A DNA stretch of 51,713 nucleotides, from positions 1 through 51,713 of IMG/VR virus record IMGVR_UViG_3300034980_000806; one strand, given 5' to 3'. The translations under genes and the position numbers were made by a program. The notes under the pieces are model-generated. The model saw only the letters and a program-made list of their open reading frames with translations, had not been told where the DNA came from and made no database searches. Of the stretch, positions 1-50,047 are shown one piece after another. How positions within the stretch are numbered: position 1 is the stretch's first letter; every line of letters starts with the position of its first letter. The stretch is from a virus. Taxonomy: Duplodnaviria; Caudoviricetes.

Positions 1-291
1 TCAGCGGCACGACTTCACCGCCGCTTCCAGCTGCCGCTCGTATCCAATTCGCTGACGCCGCTCTGCCAGCAGCGCCCTTACCTTCACCTCCAGGCTGTCT
101 GACTTCCGCAGATCGGCGGCGGCCCATGGCGGCACGGCAACATCCGGCGTGCGTCGAGGAACCTGTACTGGCACCTCGACGCGCACGGTGCGCACCTCTG
201 GTTCGACGCGGGCTGCGCAGCCGGCCAGCAGCAGGACTACGACTGCCAAGGCAGAGCCAGTTTGCAATTTTGCGCAAGTTGGCAAGTTCAT
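1..291 (-). CDS. o-spanin (Rz1-like lipoprotein)
   Basis: Start MNLPTC at 291 overlaps i-spanin stop (ATGA); hydrophobic signal with lipobox LAGC; Pro-rich mature part. Confidence 0.8.
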   Translation of the reverse strand: MNLPTCAKLQTGSALAVVVLLLAGCAARVEPEVRTVRVEVPVQVPRRTPDVAVPPWAAADLRKSDSLEVKVRALLAERRQRIGYERQLEAAVKSCR

Positions 292-5098: not shown

Positions 5099-8000
5099 TC
5101 AGGCCGGTGGAAATTGGTCGTCGTAGGTGTAAACGCGGGCGTCGTAGGGCATGCCCTTCATTGCCGTGTTGCCGTTGACTGGGTCGGAACTGGTGATCAG
5201 AACCGGATAGGCCCAGCGCGAGGCCGGGCCGAACAGGATGTGCGGCGGCTCCAGCGGGCCGTCCACTTCTGGCGTGAAGTCGAGCACGTCGACCTGCACC
5301 GTGTACTGATCCACCTGCGTTGCCGTCCAAGGCCCAGACAGCGTGCCGTCCAGCTTGCGAACGCCGATCAGGTGCTCGCCGCCGGCGCTGAAGTCCAGCG
5401 GCTCCGATGAGCTCAGCAACGTGCCCGAACCGGTCACCTCGAAGTCCAGCAGGATCGCGCTCTGGCAACGCTTTGGCGCGTCATCCGCAACGGCTGCGAA
5501 GCTCAAGTAGCCGCTGTTGCTGCCGTCCATTTCGGTTTCCCAGGTGTAGATGTCGGTCCTGAACTTCTGGTGGCCACGCCGGCGCATGCCGATACGGTAG
5601 GCCCTGGTCCTGTCGCTGATGCCAGGCATCTTGATCTTCTCGACCTTGGTGCCGAGGTCACCCGGCCACCGGCACTCGACCGTCTCCCACGCCCAGGTGG
5701 TGCGCGAGAAGAACTCCACATCCACGCCGTCGAAGTCGTTGATCGACGGCATGGCGCCGCTGATCTTCAGCATCTTGGTCATGTTCTGCGGCGAGTAGGT
5801 CTGGGTCTTCGGGCCGTAGGTCACATCGAACGCGGCCCGGGCGCTATCCCGAACCGGGCGCAGCAGGCCCCGGAAGGTCACCAGTTCGCCGAAGCTGCAC
5901 GCCAAGGCATTGTTGATCATGTCCTTGACCGTTATCGTCGATTCCAGCGTTTCGTCGTAGGTGTCTCCGCGGGCAACGCAGATGTTGTGGAAGGCCTGCC
6001 ACTCGGGCAGATCCAGGTCATCATCAGCGTACCCGCGCTGCTTCAGCTGGTAGATGCACCAAGGAACGATGTCGCGGCTTGGCCCGGTACCACCCTCCAT
6101 CAGCGGGAGAATGCGAGTCGCCTCAACGCTGACCTGGCTCTCAGACTGCGCAGACAGACGGTCACCGCCGCGGATGTTGCAGGTGATGACCGTCAAGCCT
6201 GGATAGCTGGTGGGCGAGTTCTGCATCCGCCCGCGCAGGTCCGTCCATGTTGCGTCATCACGCGCTTCATCGTTGATACGGCCGGGACGATCCACGTACT
6301 GCTTGCGGATACGGGCCTCGGCGCGCATTGCGTATGGCAGCGATACGCGCTCAGTGAAGCCCTGGGCATCAAGCGACCCACCCACGTTCATGTACTGGAG
6401 CTGGGTCCAGGCTCCGGACACGTCCATGTCGCGATACTCGAACACGTAGTAGGTCGGAATCTCGTAGATCTGCCCCTCGCGTCCTATGCCGCACAGGCCA
6501 TTGGCGTAGGTTACGGTCCACTCCAGTTCGATGACCTTCTCGTTGTCCGGGCAGCAGGAGAACGGCCCTCGGTAACCGCCTTGCAGATTCGAGGCGTCCA
6601 GCGTTATGAGGCCGTTCACCGTCTGCATGGAATTGAAGCCAGGCCAGTCCTCATCGGCCGATCCAGACGAGGTCAGTCGCTCCACCTCAATCAGGCTCGT
6701 GCTGAAGGCCGTGATCCGGTAGCGGAGGCCGCGCGGGCCGATAGTTGCCAGACCTTGGCCCAACGCAAGGCCGACCACCGGCTCGCCACCGTCGTAGTTC
6801 AGCGTCATCTCAGCCGGATGCGCAGGCGTGCCGCCGGTAGTGGCTGTGCCTGTGACACCTACTGGCGCAGAGCCCAACACTACCGAAGCGCCGGACGCCG
6901 TGATGGGCATGCCGAAGAACGGAGTCAGTTCTACGAAGCGAATCACGCCTGAGGACTGCTCGGCCTTGATCGGCACGCCAGTCAGTTGCACATTCAGAGC
7001 CGAGACCAGACCGGCAATGTCTGTTGTCGCGGAGTTCAGGGCTACTGGGTATGCCGTTCCTGCGTGCGAAATTGTGAAGCCGAGCGGCGTCACGTCAAAA
7101 TCGTACCGGCTTGGCGCTGCGGACCCTGTCAGCGTAGAAGCTGACCCTGGATCAGCCGGAACTGCTGGCACTGCTGGCGTGAAGCTGTGCACCACGTACA
7201 TCCCGGCATTTGCTCCAGCCACTTCGATCAGCATACCCGAGCTTGGATTCAGCATTTCCAGCGGACCGCGGATGATGTCACGGTCAGCGCCTCCGTCGAC
7301 TACCTCATAGCTGTACGGAGCCAAAGCCCGAATAATGATCCCGCTGGACCAGTCCTCCGGGAATTGGCCGGCACCGGCAGGAGCGCTGATCGTATCGCCG
7401 ACGAACTGATACGCGGAAGCCGTGGCCGACCTGGTGAGGTCGGTGGCCATGGTCAGTTCCAGGCCGGCCGAGCCGCTGGAGCTTGCCCCTACCTCAGGAA
7501 CGTTGAACCAGTTGATGTGGGCCGGGTCGCCCGACAGATCAGCGCCTGGCGGGTAAATCGTGAACGTTGCATCGGATCCGAGGGAGATCAGCGGGGTTTC
7601 GCCAACCTTGACCTTGGCCAGCGGTACGTCGTACTCGCCTTCGCCGATGTACAGCAGCATTTCCACGCGCTGGTCACGCGGGGCGACATGCGCCCGGCGG
7701 GGCTGGGTCAGATACGACGGATAAACCCGCTGATGGCCGGCGATCTGGCGCACTGGCTCTCCCAGCTTGACCTTGTTGCCCTTGGCGCTGGCCTCGGTCA
7801 GAGGGTCACCCTGCTGGGTGCCGGCGCTGGATGGCATGCCGGGCATCTTGGGCATAATCGACTTCAGCACCGCCTTGGCGCCTTTGAACAGCGCGAAGGT
7901 GATGGAAAATGGGTCGGTGCCTTTCGGCTCGCGGTAGATCTGCAGAAGGTCGGCAGGCTTGAACTTCACCTTGTGCCACAGGTGCTGCTCGATCAGCTCA

Positions 8001-33360: not shown

Positions 33361-33408
33361 GCCATTGCCTAATCGCTCTAGCGATAGGCCTAATTAGGCA
33401 ATGCTTAC
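33336..33408. promoter_or_regulatory. oR operators (three 15-bp sites)
   Basis: TAAGGCATTACCTTA 33336, CAAGCCATTGCCTAA 33358, TTAGGCAATGCTTAC 33394. Confidence 0.8.
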
Positions 33409-34243
33409 CGGACCAGAATTAGGCGCAGCCATTGATGCCGCGCGGATCGCCAAGGGCGTATCGAAGAAACAACTCGCAGACGACTTCCAGGTGAAGCCTC
33501 CGTCAGTGCAGGGCTGGGTGAAAAACGGCCGGATTGACAAGTCCAAGCTGATGGATGTGATCGTTTACTTTTCTGACGTGGTGGGCCCCGAGCACTGGGG
33601 GCTTCGGCCTGGCTTCTCTTACGAGAGCCTTCCGGAGGTGACTTCGGAGCCTGTCGCCGAGCCGGCGCCGGCCTCAGCTGCCGAAATGGTTCGAGCAATG
33701 CTCGCCAAGCAAGGCAAGAACTTGTCGGATACAGCGCGCGCGCAGTTGATTGCAGCCGCCGAAGCGACTGATGAGGGAAATGTGATTACCGCAGACTTCT
33801 CTCGGCCTGGCCTGGTCGGTGATGAGGTTAGGATCGCTCACTACGACATCCGCGCAGCAATGGGCGGAGGCCAGATTCCGCACGATTACCCGGAGATGCT
33901 CAAAGACATTCGCGTCAGTCCGAGCCATCTACGCGAGCTGGGGGTCGAGTTTGAGGAGCACTACCACCTGAAGGTGGTCACCGGCTGGGGCCAGTCGATG
34001 GAGCCCACCATCAAGCACCGTGACCCGTTGATCGTGAACATCAACGTGCGCGACTTCGTGGGCGATGGGGTGTACCTATTCGTCTGGGATGACCTGCTCT
34101 ACATCAAGCGGCTGCAGGTGGCTGATGAGGAGCACTACGAGATGATTTCGGACAACCCGCGGCACAAGGATCGACTGATCCGGCGGGACATGACCTACAT
34201 CCAGGCGCGGGTGCTACTGGTCTGGAACACACATCTTGTTTAA
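33401..34243 (+). CDS. cI: CI repressor (HTH + S24 autopeptidase)
   Basis: N-terminal HTH; GQSMEP catalytic Ser and IKRL Lys. Confidence 0.93.
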   Translation: MLTGPELGAAIDAARIAKGVSKKQLADDFQVKPPSVQGWVKNGRIDKSKLMDVIVYFSDVVGPEHWGLRPGFSYESLPEVTSEPVAEPAPASAAEMVRAMLAKQGKNLSDTARAQLIAAAEATDEGNVITADFSRPGLVGDEVRIAHYDIRAAMGGGQIPHDYPEMLKDIRVSPSHLRELGVEFEEHYHLKVVTGWGQSMEPTIKHRDPLIVNINVRDFVGDGVYLFVWDDLLYIKRLQVADEEHYEMISDNPRHKDRLIRRDMTYIQARVLLVWNTHLV

Positions 34244-34279: not shown

Positions 34280-36097
34280 ATGAACATAATCGGGCGTGAC
34301 GCTTTAGACCAAAAATTTAGACATAAAACTAAAGATTTTGAACCTTTCATTAGCCACATAAGATTTCCGAAATACCGAAATCTTGAACCTGGCCTAAAGC
34401 TAGACTTTTTATACCCGATAACAGCTCTCGTTGGTGAGAACGGAACCAACAAAAGCTCAATCATCAGAGCACTTTTCGGCGCCCCTGCGGACAACTCTCC
34501 AGGCACATTTTGGTTCTCGACATCGTTAGACCCTATAGAGGAAGAAGGCGGGACCCCCAACTGCCTAATTTACGGCTACCTCAACGAGCATGAGAACCGG
34601 ATTGTTGAAGTTCTTAAAACACGTTCCAGATACGATAAAACAGTGGCGGGTCAAAACCCTGACTACTGGGAACCTTCGCGCCCGATAGTAAAATATGGCA
34701 TGGAAAGAATGCCTCCAATTAAGACTGGCGCCCCCTTACCTAAAGGGCGATCAAAAACCAGATATAACGCAATAGCCAAAAAAGTCACTTTACTAGATTT
34801 CAGAACAGAGCTAAGCGCCTATGATAAATTTTTTTACCACGGCGATTTTCTCAAAACTGAAAAAATAAAAACCAAGCAGGACTTCATTCGACACAAGTCA
34901 ATTCATCTTCATGCCGCAATTGAAGCAAAATCGGCAAGTTACTTATATTATGGTAGAGATAAAATAGAAGACAAGCTCAATCGCGAACTTAGCAAGGATG
35001 AAACCGAACTTGTTTCATACGTTTTGGGGCGATCGTATAAAAAAATTGAAATAGTTGCGCACACGTTTTTTAAGAACCCTGGAAAAACTGTTCGTTTGTC
35101 ACATTCAGACATTCGGTATTCAGAGGCATTCGCAGGAAGCGGAGAGTTCGCGGTCGTCATGTTAGTGCTTGGCGTACTACAAGCCCCTCCAAACTCTCTA
35201 ATCCTACTAGACGAACCTGAAGTTTCGCTACATCCTGGCGCGCAGGAACGACTAATGAAGCTGCTTATTAGCGAGGTCACAAAAAATAATCACCAGGTTA
35301 TTTTATCTACTCACTCACCAGCGATTATTAGGCACCTCCCGCCATCCGCAATCAAAACCCTCAGATTGAACGAAAACACTGGAAAGGTCGCTTTGGTTTC
35401 GCAGAGCCTGTCTCCAGACGATGCATTTTACTACATCGGTGAACCTTCAGCGACTAAGCTTACAATTATTGTGGAGGATAAGCTCGCCAAATCGATAGTG
35501 GAAAGAGCCCTAAAAAGCTTGGGGCCTCACGTTGAAAAATATGAAGTAATGTATATACCAGGTGGTGCGGAAGCCTTGTGGGCGACCTATGTTCCAATAT
35601 TTTGCATTGCCGATCGAAAAGATATTCTTTTTCTTCTCGATGGAGACAAACGAAAACCTCCATTACGTAAATCCTCCTCAATACCAGAAGCGGAAAATGA
35701 AAGTCTCGGAGAAGAGATTAAAAAGCTAACCGGTTGTAAAATCGACTTCAAGATCGATGGGAGCGGAAAAAGCGGCGGAAACAAATCTCAACTTTACTCT
35801 ATGCAACGCCAATTTATAGATTGGACATCGCAGTATGTTGATTTTTTACCAATGAATACTGCAGAGGAATTCATAGTGGCAAATAGCCCTTCTTTTTCAA
35901 CGACGCATAAAAACCGTGACGCGAAAGAGATCATACTGGATTACGCAAAAACCCAACTTGACAGAGGCAGCGCAGACCAAATAAAATCTGAGGAGATTTT
36001 TACAATTCAATGTATTGAGCTAGCATTAATTCCTTTTAGCAATGCCGATTTCGAAAAAATACGCTCTCGAATCGAGAAATTCAATGATGGCAGATAG
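34280..36097 (+). CDS. OLD-type ATP-dependent nuclease (ABC ATPase + TOPRIM)
   Basis: Walker A variant GENGTNKS, signature-like AGSGE, Walker B LILLDEPE, STHSP; TOPRIM IIVED and LDGD; AT-rich. Confidence 0.8.
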   Translation: MNIIGRDALDQKFRHKTKDFEPFISHIRFPKYRNLEPGLKLDFLYPITALVGENGTNKSSIIRALFGAPADNSPGTFWFSTSLDPIEEEGGTPNCLIYGYLNEHENRIVEVLKTRSRYDKTVAGQNPDYWEPSRPIVKYGMERMPPIKTGAPLPKGRSKTRYNAIAKKVTLLDFRTELSAYDKFFYHGDFLKTEKIKTKQDFIRHKSIHLHAAIEAKSASYLYYGRDKIEDKLNRELSKDETELVSYVLGRSYKKIEIVAHTFFKNPGKTVRLSHSDIRYSEAFAGSGEFAVVMLVLGVLQAPPNSLILLDEPEVSLHPGAQERLMKLLISEVTKNNHQVILSTHSPAIIRHLPPSAIKTLRLNENTGKVALVSQSLSPDDAFYYIGEPSATKLTIIVEDKLAKSIVERALKSLGPHVEKYEVMYIPGGAEALWATYVPIFCIADRKDILFLLDGDKRKPPLRKSSSIPEAENESLGEEIKKLTGCKIDFKIDGSGKSGGNKSQLYSMQRQFIDWTSQYVDFLPMNTAEEFIVANSPSFSTTHKNRDAKEIILDYAKTQLDRGSADQIKSEEIFTIQCIELALIPFSNADFEKIRSRIEKFNDGR

Positions 36098-37114
36098 ATG
36101 ACCATAAATGTCTTCGATTTTTTTTCGGGCTGCGGAGGCACGAGCTGCGGTTTCCGAAATGCCGGAATGAATGTACGGCTGGGTCTTGATATTGACCCAG
36201 ACGCCGCGAAAACATATAGGTTCAATTTTCCTGAAGCCGAATTTATTGAAGCAGACATCCGAGCGCTTACTCCAGATGTGCTTTCAAAAATAATGCTTGG
36301 CATTGAGGGCAAAGTGCTATTTAGCGGTTGCGCCCCTTGCCAACCGTTCTCCAAACAGAATCGCTTCCAATCGAGCGATGATCCTCGACGCAATCTTCTT
36401 TCCGAATTTGGTAGATTTGTAGAGTTCTGGCTCCCTGACTATGTTTTCGTCGAAAACGTTCCCGGAATGCAGAAAGACTGCCTGAAAAGCGAAACTTTTG
36501 TTAGCTTCACCAAGCTACTGGACAAGCTTGGATACTCATATGATGCAGCAGTCGTGCAGGCCGCATCCTTTGGCGTACCGCAGACTCGGTCTAGACTAGT
36601 ATTAGTAGCAGCCAAGCATGAGACTGTAAGTATACCGAGAGCGACTCATGGCGCGGGACTAGCTCCCTTCTCAACTGTGCGCGATTGGATTGAAGATCTG
36701 CCGCCTCTCGCAGCTGGAGAGGCTAACCAATCGGACCCTGATCATTGTGCTATGAATCTTTCAGAGATTAATTTGCAGAGGATAGCCCACACCCTGGAGG
36801 GTGGCGGAAGAGAAAACTGGCCAGAAGAATTACTTTTAAACTGCCACAGAAATTATTCAGGTCATAGTGATGTATACGGACGTTTAGCCTGGGATAGGCC
36901 TGCTTCAGGCCTGACAACAAAATGCCTCAGCTACTCGAATGGCAGATTCGGCCACCCTAATCAAATGAGGGGATTAAGCTTACGTGAGGCTGCATCACTA
37001 CAGACCTTTCCTAGAAGTTATCGATTCTTCGGCTCCTTGCAATCTCGTGCAAGGCAAGTAGGAAATGCTGTTCCGCCATTGATGGCCGAGAGCATTTCAA
37101 CCGCTTTTAGCTAA
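36098..37114 (+). CDS. DNA (cytosine-5)-methyltransferase
   Basis: FSGCGG (I), APCQPFS (IV), ENVPG (VI), QTRSR (VIII), REAASLQTFP (IX), GNAVPP (X). Confidence 0.95.
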   Translation: MTINVFDFFSGCGGTSCGFRNAGMNVRLGLDIDPDAAKTYRFNFPEAEFIEADIRALTPDVLSKIMLGIEGKVLFSGCAPCQPFSKQNRFQSSDDPRRNLLSEFGRFVEFWLPDYVFVENVPGMQKDCLKSETFVSFTKLLDKLGYSYDAAVVQAASFGVPQTRSRLVLVAAKHETVSIPRATHGAGLAPFSTVRDWIEDLPPLAAGEANQSDPDHCAMNLSEINLQRIAHTLEGGGRENWPEELLLNCHRNYSGHSDVYGRLAWDRPASGLTTKCLSYSNGRFGHPNQMRGLSLREAASLQTFPRSYRFFGSLQSRARQVGNAVPPLMAESISTAFS

Positions 37115-41696: not shown

Positions 41697-42557
41697 ATGT
41701 TCAAGAAAGCCGAACGCAAGCAGGCCAAGCTACGGCTGGCACTTGCTGGGCCATCTGGGTCTGGAAAGACCTTCTCCGCGCTGCTCATGGCCAAGGGTCT
41801 TGGTGGCCGGATCGCGGTGATCGACACAGAGCACGGCAGCGCGTCGCTGTACGCCGATATTGCCGACTTCGATGTGCTGGAGCTGCACGCGCCCTACTCG
41901 CCGGAGCGCTACGCCGAAGCAATCACTGCCGCTGAGCAGGCCGGGTATGGCGTGCTGATCATCGATAGCTACTCGCACGAATGGACCGGCTCCGGCGGTT
42001 GCCTGGAGTCGAACGAGAAGCTCGCGCACCAGAAGTTCAAGGGCAACACCTGGGCTGCTTGGAACGAAACCACGCCGCGCCATCGCAAGCTAACCGACAA
42101 GATCCTGACCAGCCCGCTGCACATCATCTGCACCATGCGGAGCAAAACCGAGACAGTACAGGGTGAAGGCAAGAAGGTGATCAAGCTCGGCATGAAGTCC
42201 GAGCAGCGGGACGGCACCGACTACGAGTTCACCGTGGTGCTCGACATCACCCACGACGGTCATGCCGCCATCGCCAGCAAGGACCGGACAAAGTTGTTCG
42301 ATCAGCCAGAGGTGATCAGCGAAGACACCGGGCGTCGGCTGCTGGCCTGGCTGAACGACGGAAAGTCGCAGGCCGACCCGCAGGCCACGGCGCTGCAGGA
42401 TGCGCTTTCGAAGATCCCGGTTACCGAGACGATGCAGGAGCTGCAGAGCGTTTACTCGGCAGCGTACCGGATCCTTGAGCAATCACCTGACCACCTGGCG
42501 CAACTGAATGCTGCCAAAGACCAACGCAAAGCCGAACTCGCGGAGAAAGCAGCATGA
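41697..42557 (+). CDS. Sak4-like AAA ssDNA-annealing recombinase
   Basis: [22 protein letters not shown]; directly before ssb. Confidence 0.85.
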
Positions 42558-43051
42558 GGGGTATCAACAAAGTAATCCTGGTCGGAACTTGCGGCCAGGA
42601 CCCAGAGGTCCGCTACTTGCCCAATGGCAACGCGGTCACCAACCTGAGCCTTGCCACCAGCGAGGCCTGGACAGACAAGCAGACCGGGCAGAAGGTCGAG
42701 AAGACCGAATGGCACCGGGTAGTGCTGTTCGGCAAGGTCGCCGAGATCGCCGGCGAGTATCTACGCAAAGGCTCTCAGTGCTACATCGAGGGCAAGCTGC
42801 AAACCCGCGAGTGGGATAAGGACGGCATCAAGCGCTACACCACGGAAATCGTGGTCGACATCAACGGCACGATGCAGCTGCTCGGCAGCCGGCCGCAGGG
42901 TCAGCAGCCTGGGCAAGTGCCGGATCGGCAGCCAAGGCAACAGCAGCGCCCGGCGCGCCAGCAGCAGAACCAGCAAGCGGCGCCGCCCGATCACGACAGC
43001 TTCGACGACGACATACCGTTCGCGCCCCTACATCACCTCGCCGGTGCGTAG
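42554..43051 (+). CDS. ssb: Single-stranded DNA-binding protein
   Basis: [21 protein letters not shown]. Confidence 0.97.
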
Positions 43052-43559: not shown

Positions 43560-44036
43560 ATGACCCAATCTGTACTGCAATCCATCGCCGCCGCCAACCT
43601 GCCTGAGCGCGGTCAACCCCTCGCTGGCGGCATCTTCGTTACCCGCTACTGGCTGAACGGCCAGGAACGCGCCTTGGTGCTGCTGAATGACGAGTTCGAA
43701 GGGGCCTGGGGCGAATACGGCGCCAAGATCGAAGGTGCTGGCAGCTACAGCGACGGCGAGGCGAACACCCGCGCCATGGCCGAAGCTGGCAGCCAGATCG
43801 CCATCAAGGCCTTGGAGCTGGGCGCCTTCATCCCGTCCTGCCTTGAAGGTCAACTGGTGATGGCAGCCAAGGCCGATGGCCTGGTTACCGTGCGGGAAGA
43901 TGGCTGGCACTGGCTTAGTTCGCAGCGCTCCGCCAACCTCGCCTACTACGTGGACTTTGAGGATGGCTGGCTCATCACCAACCACAAGTACAACGAGTTC
44001 CTCGTCCGCCCCGTCCGCAGCCTCATCCTTCAGTAA
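43560..44036 (+). CDS. DUF1566/Lcl-like (C-type-lectin-fold) protein
   Basis: DGEANTRAMA, WHWLSSQRSA..AY.VDF.DG, VRPVRS. Confidence 0.75.
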   Translation: MTQSVLQSIAAANLPERGQPLAGGIFVTRYWLNGQERALVLLNDEFEGAWGEYGAKIEGAGSYSDGEANTRAMAEAGSQIAIKALELGAFIPSCLEGQLVMAAKADGLVTVREDGWHWLSSQRSANLAYYVDFEDGWLITNHKYNEFLVRPVRSLILQ

Positions 44037-44152: not shown

Positions 44153-44539
44153 ATGGAGCAAGTCAGCATCAGCATTGACGCCAGCGTGGCGTCCCGAATC
44201 ATCCAGCGTGAGTTCGACCGCCTGCTCAACTATGCAGCCATCGAGCCGGTGAATTCCGGAGCTCCAACCCTTGGCTCGTACTGGCCTGAGCAAGGCGGCC
44301 ACAACGCTGGGCTGGTTCGCGGCGAGGATGGCTCGCCGGACTACTACCTGATCGTGCCGGTGATAACCGAGCAGATGAGCGCGGCATGGGGCGGCTACGG
44401 CGAGGAAGTCGAGGGGGCGAGCAGTGCCAGCGATGGCCTGGCCAACACCAGAGCGCTTCTGGCTGACAGCAACGAACACCCTGCCGCCAAGCGGCCTCAC
44501 GGAGCACCGAAATGCAGAAAGCACCTTCTGGAGTCGTAA
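44153..44539 (+). pseudogene. Truncated DUF1566-like paralogue
   Basis: GASSASDGLANTRALL...HPAAK then unrelated 15-aa tail; the W.SSQ and RPVR C-terminal half is missing. Confidence 0.6.
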
Positions 44540-45217: not shown

Positions 45218-45280
45218 CCCGGGCTGCCCTCCAGCGCCTTCCCCTAGTCAACGATAACGCCTCCCCGGCGAGGATCGCCC

Positions 45281-45526
45281 ATGAACATCTACCGCCACAC
45301 CTTTACCGCCGTTTGCCCGAGCGATGCCGAGGTGATCGTCTATAGCCTGGAGATCCGTAGCAAGACGATGATCCGCGTTGAGCACATCAAGACCGCCACC
45401 GCCCTGATCAAACAGGGCTGGCACGAGAAAATCGCCGACCAGCTGGCCAAGCGCTTAGGCGGCGCCCAGGTGATCAAGGCGGTGCATCAGGGCGTCGGGA
45501 TCGAAACGGTGAGGCTGAGCGGATGA
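45281..45526 (+). CDS. Minimal QueF-like T-fold protein
   Basis: FTAVCP and WHEKIADQL resemble QueF FTSLCP and FHE motifs. Confidence 0.5.
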   Translation: MNIYRHTFTAVCPSDAEVIVYSLEIRSKTMIRVEHIKTATALIKQGWHEKIADQLAKRLGGAQVIKAVHQGVGIETVRLSG

Positions 45527-46248
45527 TCCATTACCACGGCACGCCTATCGGCGGCTCACGGCAAGACGCGGCCCGCCTGCTGGCCGGCCGGCACGCCTTG
45601 GTGCCTTTCCCGCGGCAAGACGACGTGGGCATAGTCGCCGAGGCCTGCCAGTCGTTTGTCTTCGACAACGGCGCGTTCACCGTGTGGAAGAAAGGTGGTC
45701 AAGTCGATGTCGATGGATACACCCGCTGGGTGGATGACTGGCATCGGCACCCCGGCTTCGACTGGGCCCTGATCCCTGACGTGATCGACGGGGACGAAGA
45801 CGCCAACGACCGGCTGCTCGAGCAATGGCCTGGCCACCTCCCCGGCGTGCCGGTCTGGCACATGCACGAGTCGATCGAGCGGCTGCAACGCTTGGCCCAG
45901 TCATGGCGCATGGTCGCCTTGGGCAGCTCAGGCCAGTGGCGTTCGCCGGGCACCGCAGCGTGGTGGAAGCGCATGGGCGCCGCAATGGACGCCATATGCG
46001 ATAACCAGGGCCGGCCAGTCTGCCGCCTGCATGGCCTGCGAATGCTTGACCCGGCCATCTTCCAGAGCCTGCCGCTGGCATCGGCTGACAGCACGAACGC
46101 CGCAATGAACGGCGGTAGCATCAGTCGGTTCGGCATGTACACCCCGCCATCGGCCGGACAACGCGCCAGCGTGATAGCCGATCGAATTGAAGCACACACC
46201 AGCTCACCCATTTGGCAGCGCGAGAGCCAGACAGAACTGGCCTTGTGA
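45523..46248 (+). CDS. TGT/DpdA-like transglycosylase-fold protein
   Basis: FDNGAF, PDVIDG, PVWH, LHGL and SADST align by eye with TGT-family DSG.F, D, PV.H, H..G, S.DS motifs. Confidence 0.6.
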   Translation: MIHYHGTPIGGSRQDAARLLAGRHALVPFPRQDDVGIVAEACQSFVFDNGAFTVWKKGGQVDVDGYTRWVDDWHRHPGFDWALIPDVIDGDEDANDRLLEQWPGHLPGVPVWHMHESIERLQRLAQSWRMVALGSSGQWRSPGTAAWWKRMGAAMDAICDNQGRPVCRLHGLRMLDPAIFQSLPLASADSTNAAMNGGSISRFGMYTPPSAGQRASVIADRIEAHTSSPIWQRESQTELAL

Positions 46249-46265
46249 CAATCAGAGGTATCCCC

Positions 46266-47063
46266 ATGCCCCCAGAAAACAAGATCGATTGCCCGGCCCT
46301 TCACAAGCGCAGCGATAGCTATCCGTTTGGCGATCGAGTGCCGCGCACGGTCCGGATGCTGAAGACCGTGACCGCCGACCCTATGCCTGGCATCGGGCTC
46401 GCCTACATCAAGGGCGATGCGCCGGTTGCTAAGGAGGGTCAAACCTACCGCGTGTGGACGAACAGCCACGGCGCCGTCACAGCGGTAATGGGGAGCGGCG
46501 TCCGCCTGGGCCTGCGACCGGCCGAGTTCGAGGTCGATAGCTGGCACCACCTTGCAGGCGAGCCAACTCCGCAGACCCACCCCGAGCCGATAGCCTGGAT
46601 GGTTGGCACTGCCATCTGGTGGCACAAGGCCGGTGCGGAACGGGATTCCGAGGAGCGGAGCGAGCCCATGGTTCCGCTTGGCCCATGCGACAGCCCGAGC
46701 GAGATAGCGCGCGTCACGGCCCAGTTCAAGGAATGGCAGGCGAGCCATCACCGCAACTACTGCAAGGCAGCCGATGAGCGCGATGAGCTGCGCGGCCAAC
46801 TCGACCAAGCTCGCCAACTTCTGCACACCGCGAGCATTCGGCTCGCAAACTGGCTGGAGCCAGGTGATGACCCGCGCAAGCAGATCATTGCGTTCCTAGA
46901 GGAAGGCGCGGAACCAAGCTCGCCCCCGGCTCCATACCCGAATCGTCTTTGCCATATCGACTACACCGCCCACCCACACCGGTGCGGCTGCCTGAAGGGT
47001 GACGAAGAGTCGCAACGCATATACGACGAGCATTGCCGTGCTGCCTTGGAGCGCCAGCCATGA
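46266..47063 (+). CDS. Hypothetical mosaic protein
   Basis: GAGG RBS, start MPPENK. Confidence 0.65.
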   Translation: MPPENKIDCPALHKRSDSYPFGDRVPRTVRMLKTVTADPMPGIGLAYIKGDAPVAKEGQTYRVWTNSHGAVTAVMGSGVRLGLRPAEFEVDSWHHLAGEPTPQTHPEPIAWMVGTAIWWHKAGAERDSEERSEPMVPLGPCDSPSEIARVTAQFKEWQASHHRNYCKAADERDELRGQLDQARQLLHTASIRLANWLEPGDDPRKQIIAFLEEGAEPSSPPAPYPNRLCHIDYTAHPHRCGCLKGDEESQRIYDEHCRAALERQP

Positions 47064-47258: not shown

Positions 47259-47579
47259 GTGCCTGTAGAAAAAACTGCTCTCGACTCCATCGATCTGGAT
47301 GCCCTACATGTCGCCGCCAAGGCCGCTGCCGAGGATGTGATCCGCTCCCACGGCTGGAAGGGAATGGTCGAAGACGCCGACCTGCTGGGAACCGATGAGC
47401 GTTACCTGGCCCTGGCCGACCCAGCCGTGGTTGCCGGGCTCATCACGGAAATCAAGGCCCTTCGACGGGCACTGGGCGGAATGCTGTTTGCCTTCGATGA
47501 CGGTGTCGGCAAGGAATGGTCGCAGGATCTGCTCGACTTCGCCCGCCAAGTCACGCCAGCAGTCGAGTTCAAGCTATGA
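47259..47579 (+). CDS. Hypothetical protein (Ead/Ea22-related motif)
   Basis: YLALADPAVV.GLI.EI. Confidence 0.6.
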   Translation: MPVEKTALDSIDLDALHVAAKAAAEDVIRSHGWKGMVEDADLLGTDERYLALADPAVVAGLITEIKALRRALGGMLFAFDDGVGKEWSQDLLDFARQVTPAVEFKL

Positions 47580-49262: not shown

Positions 49263-49312
49263 CCCTCCCCCTACAACTCAAGCCCGCCGACATGCGCGGG
49301 CGAGGATTCTGC

Positions 49313-50047
49313 ATGCTCGAAAACATCGAGGTGGTGCGCATCAAGCGCTTCGCCGCAAACACGGCTGGCCGCGATTTCGCGGTCGGCGATATCCACGGGC
49401 ACTTCACCAGGCTGCAGGCTGCCCTGGACGCGGCCGGCTTCGATACGGAGGTTGACCGGCTGTTCAGCGTTGGCGATCTGGTCGACCGTGGGCCAGACAG
49501 CCTCGCCGCCCTTGAATGGCTTGAGCGTCCGTGGTTTCACGCTGTACGCGGCAACCACGAGGAAATGACCGTGTCGGCCTTCCGCGAAGCAAGCACCGAC
49601 CTGCACTTCTGCAACGGCGGCGCTTGGTTCTACGCGCTATCGCAGGATGAACGGGCCGATGTCGTTTTGGCGCTTGAAGCCCTTCCGCTGGCCATCGAGG
49701 TTGAAACCGCGCACGGGATTGTCGGAATCGTTCACGCGGACGTGCCATATGGTCGCTGGCCCGATTTCAAGCTGAGCATTGAGACTGGCTCCCCGGCAGA
49801 GGTGGACCATGTTCAGGCAGTCGCCCAGTGGTCCCGCAGCCGGATCAATGACGGCAATACCGAACCAGTAGCTGGCATCAGCGCCGTAGTGGTCGGCCAT
49901 ACCCCTCTGCGGCAGCCGGCCGTCCTGGGCAACGTCTACCACATCGACACTGCCGGCTGGATGGATGGCCACTTCACCCTGCTGGAGCTTAGCTCTCTCC
50001 AGTGCACACCACCAATCAAACCAGGCGTCAGCCACGACTGGGACTGA
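49313..50047 (+). CDS. Ser/Thr protein phosphatase (lambda NinI-like metallophosphoesterase)
   Basis: GDIHG, GDLVDRG, RGNHE, GHTP, IDT. Confidence 0.92.
   Translation: MLENIEVVRIKRFAANTAGRDFAVGDIHGHFTRLQAALDAAGFDTEVDRLFSVGDLVDRGPDSLAALEWLERPWFHAVRGNHEEMTVSAFREASTDLHFCNGGAWFYALSQDERADVVLALEALPLAIEVETAHGIVGIVHADVPYGRWPDFKLSIETGSPAEVDHVQAVAQWSRSRINDGNTEPVAGISAVVVGHTPLRQPAVLGNVYHIDTAGWMDGHFTLLELSSLQCTPPIKPGVSHDWD

Follow-up and report, generated by a model that had tools for sequence, protein, structure and literature searches.

The 51,713-bp IMG/VR record IMGVR_UViG_3300034980_000806, which we analysed over its whole length and refer to as the window, is the complete provirus (CheckV completeness 100%) of a temperate phage assigned to Pseudomonas. 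Two adjoining genes on its plus strand are the subject of this study. The first (45281..45526) encodes an 81-residue protein that belongs to PHROG 37496 and to no Pfam family, and that appears to be a minimal tunnelling-fold (T-fold) protein resembling the enzymes QueF and QueF-Like (QueF-L). The second (45523..46248) encodes a 241-residue guanine transglycosylase of the DpdA type, which resembles the 'singleton' DpdA of Salmonella phage 7-11 and has no zinc subdomain. Together, the two genes may constitute a two-component 7-deazaguanine DNA-modification module that runs on preQ0 made by the host.

The stop codon of the first gene and the start codon of the second overlap in the tetranucleotide ATGA (45523..45526, plus strand), an arrangement that would couple their translation. 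Each gene is also preceded by a putative Shine-Dalgarno-like site on the same strand: GAGGA at 45270..45274, 6 nucleotides before the ATG of the 81-residue gene, and GAGG at 45511..45514, which lies within that gene, 8 nucleotides before the ATG of the DpdA gene. Both open reading frames (ORFs) are real genes rather than chance frames because both have many relatives. A full HMMER scan of 1.84 billion representatives gave 287 clusters (50% identity) of relatives of the 81-residue protein at E ≤ 1e-3, mostly about 80 residues long, and at least 7237 relatives of the 241-residue protein were found at E ≤ 1e-5 among 8000 candidates scored. A first-pass annotation made from the sequence had already described a coupled gene pair in a temperate phage, with QueF-like motifs but no GxPD segment in the small protein and transglycosylase-like motifs in the larger one. 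These observations are borne out: the overlap is as described, the translations contain TFTAVCP and WHEK without GxPD (81 residues) and FDNGAF, IPDV, PVWH, LHGL and SADST (241 residues), and an integrase and a CI-like repressor are encoded in the complete provirus.

The 81-residue protein matches PHROG 37496, a family of unknown function (E 1.2e-39), and no other PHROG family, with nothing meaningful in Pfam or NCBIfam. For family-wide comparisons we aligned it with 74 of 150 listed representatives, chosen for lengths of about 77-89 residues, to give a 75-member family. An AlphaFold2 model computed from this family alignment (mean predicted local distance difference test score, pLDDT, 97.4) consists of strands 2-11 and 18-27, helices 33-41 and 48-59, and strands 62-69 and 72-78. 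This strand-strand-helix-helix-strand-strand order is the signature of the T-fold. Foldseek placed QueF-L (5jyx, 5k0p) first among the structures matching the model (E 2e-4, template modelling score 0.75). An independent VIA search, run all-against-all over 48,161 representative chains, also ranked QueF-L first (5jyx_A; Z 12.7, root-mean-square deviation 1.2 Å, 81 of 81 residues, 21% identity), 2.6 Z units ahead of the next T-fold protein. GTP cyclohydrolase I (Z 10.1) and QueF (4f8b, Z 9.4) came next, then FolX, PTPS and dihydroneopterin aldolases, and the top 20 matches were T-fold proteins throughout.

To compare the family with QueF itself, we assembled a reference set with the Pfam QueF model, which gave 58 matches over 61 genomes of the host's phylum; 30 loci were returned and yielded 29 ORFs, and 26 sequences were kept once three wrong-strand ORFs had been dropped. 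Aligning the 75-member family to these 26 with hhalign gave a probability of 62% in local mode (E 7.5e-5, 80 columns) and 10% in global mode (E 8e-4), and a run against 13 of the 26 gave 61% (E 8.2e-5, 49 columns). Both alignments place the same three elements in register. FTAVCP falls on EFTxLCP of QueF, which makes Cys12 the counterpart of the catalytic cysteine (Cys55 in Bacillus subtilis QueF, bsQueF); VEH falls on VE(L/S)K, equating Val33-Glu34 with Val77-Glu78; and WHE falls on FHE, equating His48-Glu49 with His96-Glu97. In bsQueF, Cys55 is reported as the thioimide nucleophile and Asp62 as the proton donor, while preQ0 is held by Glu97 (to N1 and N2), the His96 backbone (to O6), Glu78 (to N9) and Val77 (to N2) (PMC13740343). 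Most of these positions are strongly conserved in the 81-residue family: Asn2, Tyr4, Cys12, Glu49 and Ala52 are invariant (Cys12 and Glu49 in 75 of 75), followed by Glu34, Pro13 and His69 (74 each), Arg78 (72), His48 (67, with Gln in the other 8) and Val33 (50, with Ala in 20). For QueF-L, the thioimide cysteine is given as Cys21 (PMC5485725). The QueF profile matches chain 5jyx_A at E 5e-7 with its cysteine column opposite chain residue 21; the equivalence of Cys12 and Cys21 is read from coordinate ranges only, with which the VIA ranges (1..81 and 10..102) agree. The QueF likeness proposed at first pass is therefore upheld by both fold and active-site positions.

The residues that QueF uses for reduction are another matter. 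The NADPH motif E(S/L)K(S/A)hK(L/Y)(Y/F/W) is represented by its first glutamate, Glu34, alone: no lysine is conserved at positions 35-41 among the 75 members, and positions 35, 37, 38 and 41 are variable. With no NADPH site, the 81-residue protein should be unable to reduce a nitrile as QueF does. These observations bear directly on the possibility that the protein is a true but very short QueF, which would convert preQ0 to preQ1 with NADPH for subsequent insertion of preQ1 into DNA. Phage QueF proteins do exist and are reported to complement an E. coli queF mutant (PMC10516641), and the best named cluster for our protein in a protein atlas is a 109-residue viral QueF family, at a score of 0.86, which is below the 0.9 line and counts as a lead only. 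Yet the NADPH motif is eroded, the aspartate that donates protons in QueF is absent, and the hosts already make preQ1, so that we consider a miniature reductase highly improbable. The most apt description of the 81-residue protein is a new minimal branch of the QueF/QueF-L superfamily, in which the ligand pocket and nucleophile are kept and the reductase equipment and acid/base residue are missing.

The 241-residue protein is identified by its relatives. It matches PHROG 887, named 'queuine tRNA-ribosyltransferase', at E 2.5e-71, with no Pfam match at E ≤ 1 and none in NCBIfam; no match to the tRNA-guanine transglycosylase (TGT) model PF01702 occurs in the window at E ≤ 10. Against PDB sequences the family profile found nothing and phmmer gave one chance match. 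A tblastn search recovered relatives in 117 phage records, including Pseudomonas phage Epa33 (79% identity), lambdoid and P22-like phages of Salmonella and E. coli (about 49%), Salmonella phage 7-11 (37%) and many Vibrio phages; the 120 relatives listed in the protein search are nearly all Pseudomonas 'hypothetical proteins'. The family profile gives E 1.3e-51 for phage 7-11 DpdA and has no match at E ≤ 0.01 in the whole genome of Vibrio phage nt-1, the type DpdA2 phage, where the 81-residue family profile finds no match either. A CxCxxC zinc motif is absent, the only cysteines being at positions 42, 159 and 167, and the PADLOC defence models, among which the bacterial Dpd proteins should be represented, gave no match to either member of the pair. 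Thus, the 241-residue protein is a short phage DpdA of the 'singleton' group, described from gamma-proteobacterial phages by Hutinet 2019 (PMC6884629), and neither a bacterial DpdA nor a DpdA2.

Conserved residues and fold agree with this assignment. In an alignment of 24 DpdA sequences (the window and 23 fetched loci), Asp48, Pro85-Asp86, Gly134, His170, Arg173 and Ser190 are invariant and Asp189 is conserved in at least 90%. The AlphaFold2 model (pLDDT 91.1) is a (beta/alpha) barrel in which Asp48, Asp86 and Asp189 all lie at strand ends; judged by their order rather than by residue-level superposition, they would correspond to Asp95, Asp130 and Asp256 of Salmonella Montevideo DpdA. The three best VIA matches all belong to the TGT superfamily: Cap10 (Z 15.7), archaeosine TGT (Z 15.7) and the DNA preQ0 insertase DpdA 7ui4 (Z 14.4; root-mean-square deviation 3.0 Å over 212 aligned residues). 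Foldseek also placed a bacterial TGT first, weakly (E 5e-4). Because unrelated TIM barrels come close behind in the VIA ranking (Z 13.8 and below), the fold by itself says little about identity, and the assignment depends mainly on the sequence link. Taken with the sequence relationship to phage 7-11 DpdA, the TGT-superfamily barrel agrees with the earlier description of a TGT- or DpdA-like protein.

A transglycosylase of this superfamily could in principle act on tRNA or on host queuosine metabolism, as part of a host takeover, rather than on phage DNA. The fold family is that of the tRNA-guanine transglycosylases, the PHROG name refers to tRNA, and tRNA is the substrate known for QueF-L (PMC5485725). 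Yet the 241-residue protein is grouped with 7-11 DpdA, from a phage that has the modified base dADG in its DNA, fails to match the Pfam TGT model, lacks the extra domains described for TGTs (PMC10164549) and is encoded among DNA recombination and replication genes (see below). We therefore regard a role in tRNA or queuosine metabolism as quite unlikely.

The two genes are neighbours well beyond the window. Among 69 viral loci with close relatives of the 81-residue gene (60-93% identity), 67 have a DpdA-type gene immediately downstream on the same strand, and the remaining two hold only partial copies of the 81-residue gene; these loci are related prophages and are not mutually independent. In most of them 0-6 nucleotides separate the tblastn matches of the two genes, which abut as in the window. 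A more distant set of 65 further loci was collected with a 10-member sub-alignment of a distant clade. Here a DpdA-type gene (36-68% identity) follows on the same strand in 63, at a spacing of at most 30 nucleotides in 31, of 31-120 in 5 and greater in 27. The other two (L075 and L138) have a divergent 216-residue DpdA-like gene that overlaps the stop of the 81-residue gene, which brings the total to 65 of 65. Where there is a gap, the intervening ORFs include HTH_3 regulators (several loci), a deoxyribosyltransferase, a transporter of the Vut_1/YhhQ family (L084, L085) and QueD/PTPS (L121, E 5e-22). Isolated phages contribute three distinct cases, namely Epa33 (72% protein identity for the 81-residue gene), Microcystis phage Mae-JY30 and Rhizobium phage RHph_X2_30, equal to 4 of the 117 DpdA-matching records. 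In Mae-JY30 the gene order is reversed, with a 4-nucleotide overlap, and RHph_X2_30 has a Vut_1 gene (E 3e-13) two genes upstream. In addition, PTPS/QueD-like domains are found fused to three family members, at either end: the domain is N-terminal in P0213 and P0195 (E about 2e-4, narrowly missing the curated cutoff) and C-terminal in P0246 (23.3 bits against a cutoff of 22.4).

So close a linkage could mean that the 81-residue protein is a subunit of the short DpdA without catalytic activity of its own, serving as a specificity or DNA-loading factor much as DpdB accompanies DpdA or QTRT2 accompanies QTRT1. The strict adjacency and translational coupling would suit a subunit, the 241-residue protein lacks the zinc subdomain and large insertions of bacterial DpdA, and bacterial DpdA requires its partner DpdB for preQ0 insertion. 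A scaffold, however, would have no need of an invariant Cys12 and Glu49 at QueF active-site positions, most phages with this type of DpdA have no such partner, other genes may come between the two, and their order may be reversed. A predicted complex of the two proteins scored 0.00 in two runs, which were made without controls, and counts neither for nor against binding. On balance, a purely structural role seems unlikely.

Several further features of these loci were observed. The 216-residue DpdA-like gene of L075 and L138 lies at 6243-6890 and encodes the motifs DNGAW, APDIV and SVDGTSA; it has no Pfam match, its similarity to the window DpdA is local only (BLASTP E 4e-6), and it may represent a further DpdA subfamily. 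The gene between the pair in five related loci belongs to the nucleoside 2-deoxyribosyltransferase family (PF05014; E 1.7e-8 for L077) and lies at 2846-3214 in L070, 2812-3282 in L076, 2679-3047 in L077, 1434-1886 in L111 and 1745-2143 in L113. The fusion proteins P0213, P0195 and P0246 are two-module T-fold proteins reminiscent of bimodular QueF, and a longer family member, P0260, carries an HSH motif and has no Pfam match. When P0213, P0246 and P0252 were each used alone as distant queries, no viral loci were recovered. A few close relatives seem to have a broken or shortened DpdA gene, which may reflect decay or assembly error: in L005 (2269-2989) residues 1-114 and 108-241 are in different frames, and L055 and L069 are further cases. 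Finally, a 1888-base Logan contig from an RNA-seq library of another organism, which gives no evidence of transcription, matches the window over the two-gene cassette alone (45272-46280, about 92% identity), with both flanks diverging, and contigs of three other runs keep the left flank and have the right flank replaced from 46181 on. Of the Logan runs that contain this stretch, three are probably of DNA. The pair seems to move between prophages as a module.

The phage itself does not appear to supply preQ0. Pfam models for QueC, PTPS/QueD, QueF, GTP cyclohydrolase I and radical SAM proteins gave no match in the whole phage record, in agreement with the earlier statement that folE, queC, queD and queE are missing from the window. 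None of the 50 viral records examined (the window and 49 of the 65 distant loci) contains QueC, and 24 of these records have a completeness of 90% or more. The gene for the 81-residue protein is held by 12 Pseudomonas genomes, and QueF and QueC were both present in five of the five examined. A dependence of the phage module on host preQ0 fits the data. In this respect the first-pass annotation, which proposed a stripped-down module that scavenges the host's base, is supported: the lack of synthesis genes and the capacity of the hosts agree with it, although the idea of a minimal system had already been described. Hutinet 2019 (PMC6884629) reports 76 phages that have DpdA, lack preQ0 genes and may depend on the host for preQ0, with YhhQ encoded by some of them, and calls the modification status of such DpdA-only phages hard to predict. 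The new element is therefore the 81-residue partner and not the minimal system as such.

Based on these observations, we propose that the 241-residue DpdA inserts host preQ0 into phage DNA and that the 81-residue protein turns its nitrile into the base of dG+ or dADG, a conversion to which we assign a probability of roughly one half. Relatives of phage DpdA have been shown to exchange DNA guanine for preQ0, and by homology the 241-residue protein would exchange guanines in replicated phage DNA for the host-made base. The 81-residue protein would bind the 7-deazaguanine ring through Val33-Glu34 and His48-Glu49, and Cys12 would attack the nitrile to form a covalent thioimide, as the conserved residues and the fold suggest. 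This intermediate could be resolved in two ways. First, ammonia could yield an amidine (dG+, of the archaeosine type), as in QueF-L. Second, water could yield an amide (dADG), the outcome that DpdC achieves in bacteria. The substrate may be either preQ0 already in DNA, comparable to the action of QueF-L on tRNA, or the free base before insertion. The likely benefit to the phage would be protection of its DNA from restriction in the next host.

Several observations weigh against this conversion. The sequence evidence for homology to QueF is modest, at an hhalign probability of about 61%; none of the 75 members matches Pfam QueF (PF14489), even at E ≤ 10, and phmmer and family-profile searches of PDB sequences gave chance matches only. 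No acidic residue is conserved between Cys12 and Tyr21 among the 75 members: position 15 is mostly either Asp (36 members) or Asn (33), and hhalign sets Ile19 opposite the general acid/base aspartate of QueF. Since the D197N variant of E. coli QueF is given as inactive (PMC13740343), the lack of a counterpart to this aspartate means that turnover, unlike binding alone, is not assured. The net charge of the family is not consistently basic (median -2, range -8 to +9) and so lends no support to a conserved nucleic-acid-binding surface. Glu34 corresponds to Glu78, which contacts N9-H of the free base, and this favours the free base over a DNA nucleoside as the ligand. Phage 7-11 provides a further objection: its DNA is reported to carry 50 dADG per million nucleotides (PMC6884629), and the 81-residue family profile has no match in its whole genome, which shows that the gene is not needed there for DpdA activity or for dADG. 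More generally, most isolated phages with this type of DpdA lack the 81-residue gene. The 81-residue protein was also considered as the explanation of dADG in 7-11 and was rejected for want of any family match in that genome; 7-11 gp031, whose gene overlaps the end of the 7-11 DpdA gene, belongs to no Pfam family.

The missing aspartate, the charge, the Glu34-N9 contact, phage 7-11 and the phages with a solitary DpdA together keep alive two alternatives, of which the subunit discussed above is the weaker. The other is that the 81-residue protein merely captures preQ0: a reversible covalent hold through Cys12 would keep the base away from host QueF and raise its level for DpdA, with no conversion. 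What is conserved, namely the preQ0-recognition set and the cysteine but not the proton-relay aspartate, fits a catcher, as does the match of Glu34 to the QueF contact for the free base. QueF-L and free preQ0 are reported to form a stable, unreactive thioimide, with an apparent dissociation constant of 8 µM (PMC5485725). The hosts possess QueF (5/5), which would reduce preQ0 to preQ1, and a phage DpdA2 expressed in E. coli inserted mainly preQ1 in wild-type cells and preQ0 in queF mutant cells (PMC10516641, Table 2), indicating that competition with host QueF is real. On the other hand, the number of bases that a stoichiometric binder can buffer is limited by its own copy number, and in QueF the base is buried with its N9 engaged (PMC13740343), so that handing it over to DpdA would require release. 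The linkage to QueD and transporter genes suits an enzyme equally well. We therefore give capture without conversion a small but real chance.

If conversion by the 81-residue protein does occur, a bolder version of it can be put forward tentatively: that the protein is the first T-fold enzyme found to act on DNA, a minimal amidinotransferase or hydratase of the QueF-L type that writes dG+ or an undescribed 7-deazaguanine, together with a short DpdA and host preQ0 alone, in many temperate phages, Pseudomonas prophages among them. Such an enzyme would constitute a third independent phage route from preQ0 in DNA to an amidine or amide, and lysogens of common soil and clinical pseudomonads would carry a hidden DNA-hypermodification kit.

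By PHROG scans, the pair sits in an early operon that runs from a Sak4-like annealing protein gene (41697-42557) and a single-stranded DNA-binding protein gene (42554-43051), both upstream of the pair, towards a NinI-like phosphatase gene (49292-50047) and the integrase gene (50532 to the record end). Just upstream of the module, two tandem genes on the plus strand (43560-44036, E 1.9e-24, and 44153-44539, E 2.9e-11) each align with the C-terminal portion of PHROG 4245, a family of unknown function, and resemble a local duplication. Two plus-strand ORFs after the DpdA gene, 46212-47063 (283 residues, overlapping the end of DpdA and of uncertain start) and 47259-47579 (106 residues), belong to no PHROG or PADLOC family. 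Elsewhere in the window, the CI-like repressor gene (33401-34243) is followed directly on its 3' side by two plus-strand genes (34280-37114). The first encodes a 605-residue ABC ATPase of the OLD/AriA/Gabija type (PADLOC HEC-04, E 5.6e-31, with AriA, PtuA and GajA matching too), and the second, beginning 1 nucleotide after it, a C5 cytosine DNA methyltransferase (MTase_II, E 8e-89). These two look like a prophage-borne defence or restriction-modification-like moron.

In our assessment, the 81-residue proteins form a new, minimal family of T-fold proteins that has been recruited to partner DpdA. We found no description of such a partner in print, although the supplementary tables of two surveys (PMC6884629, PMC10516641) might list such proteins, and the public annotations we encountered for the genes read 'hypothetical protein' throughout. 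Modification of DNA with 7-deazaguanines is of interest for its part in restriction evasion and Cas9 protection and as a target of type IV restriction, and the DpdA-only phages are the largest and least understood class of DpdA phages. A widespread unnamed family (PHROG 37496) is now seen as a near-obligate neighbour of DpdA with the preQ0-binding and thioimide-forming residues of QueF. Its study could show how temperate phages without synthesis genes complete their modification, whether a T-fold enzyme acts on DNA, and what an 81-residue minimal QueF active site does without the catalytic aspartate. The family could also be used as a marker to predict modified prophage DNA, a matter of relevance to sequencing, cloning and studies of phage-host range.

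Like the window phage, the DpdA group of Salmonella phage 7-11 lacks genes for preQ0 synthesis and depends on the host, but the window phage has the 81-residue partner, of which the 7-11 genome has none; Pantoea phage MED16 is placed in the singleton DpdA group by the literature. The bacterial DpdA/DpdB/DpdC system (Salmonella Montevideo, 7ui4) shares the logic in which a transglycosylase inserts preQ0 and a second protein, DpdC, converts the nitrile and makes dADG. Unlike the bacterial enzyme, the window DpdA lacks the zinc site (CXCX2CX22H) and the large Ins8 insertion and has 241 residues against 413 in the 7ui4 chain; there is no DpdB ATPase, and the second protein is a T-fold. Among phages, Gat-QueC of phage 9g and ArcS of Vibrio phage nt-1 also represent a protein encoded beside DpdA that acts on the preQ0 nitrile, and ArcS together with nt-1 DpdA2 is reported to have given dG+ in E. 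coli plasmids (PMC10516641). Their folds, however, are unrelated to that of the 81-residue protein, and both 9g and nt-1 carry preQ0 synthesis genes as well.

The two closest relatives by structure are the T-fold enzymes themselves. QueF of the B. subtilis YkvM type (4f8b) has the same fold and matches the 81-residue protein at Cys55, Val77-Glu78 and His96-Glu97, but the latter is without the N-terminal extension, the GQPD loop that bears Asp62 and the lysines of the NADPH motif. QueF-L is nearer. In the NAR 2023 survey (PMC10516641), no phage QueF sequence is reported to have aligned with QueF-L. The 81-residue protein is about 25 residues shorter than QueF-L, does not conserve its general acid/base aspartate and is not consistently basic across the family, which is viral or bacterial rather than crenarchaeal and whose presumed partner acts on DNA instead of tRNA. 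Yet QueF-L of Pyrobaculum calidifontis (5jyx, 5k0p) is, like the 81-residue protein, a single small T-fold domain with the equivalent thioimide cysteine and no NADPH motif, and each partners an enzyme of the TGT family that first inserts preQ0, as is presumed for the pair described here.

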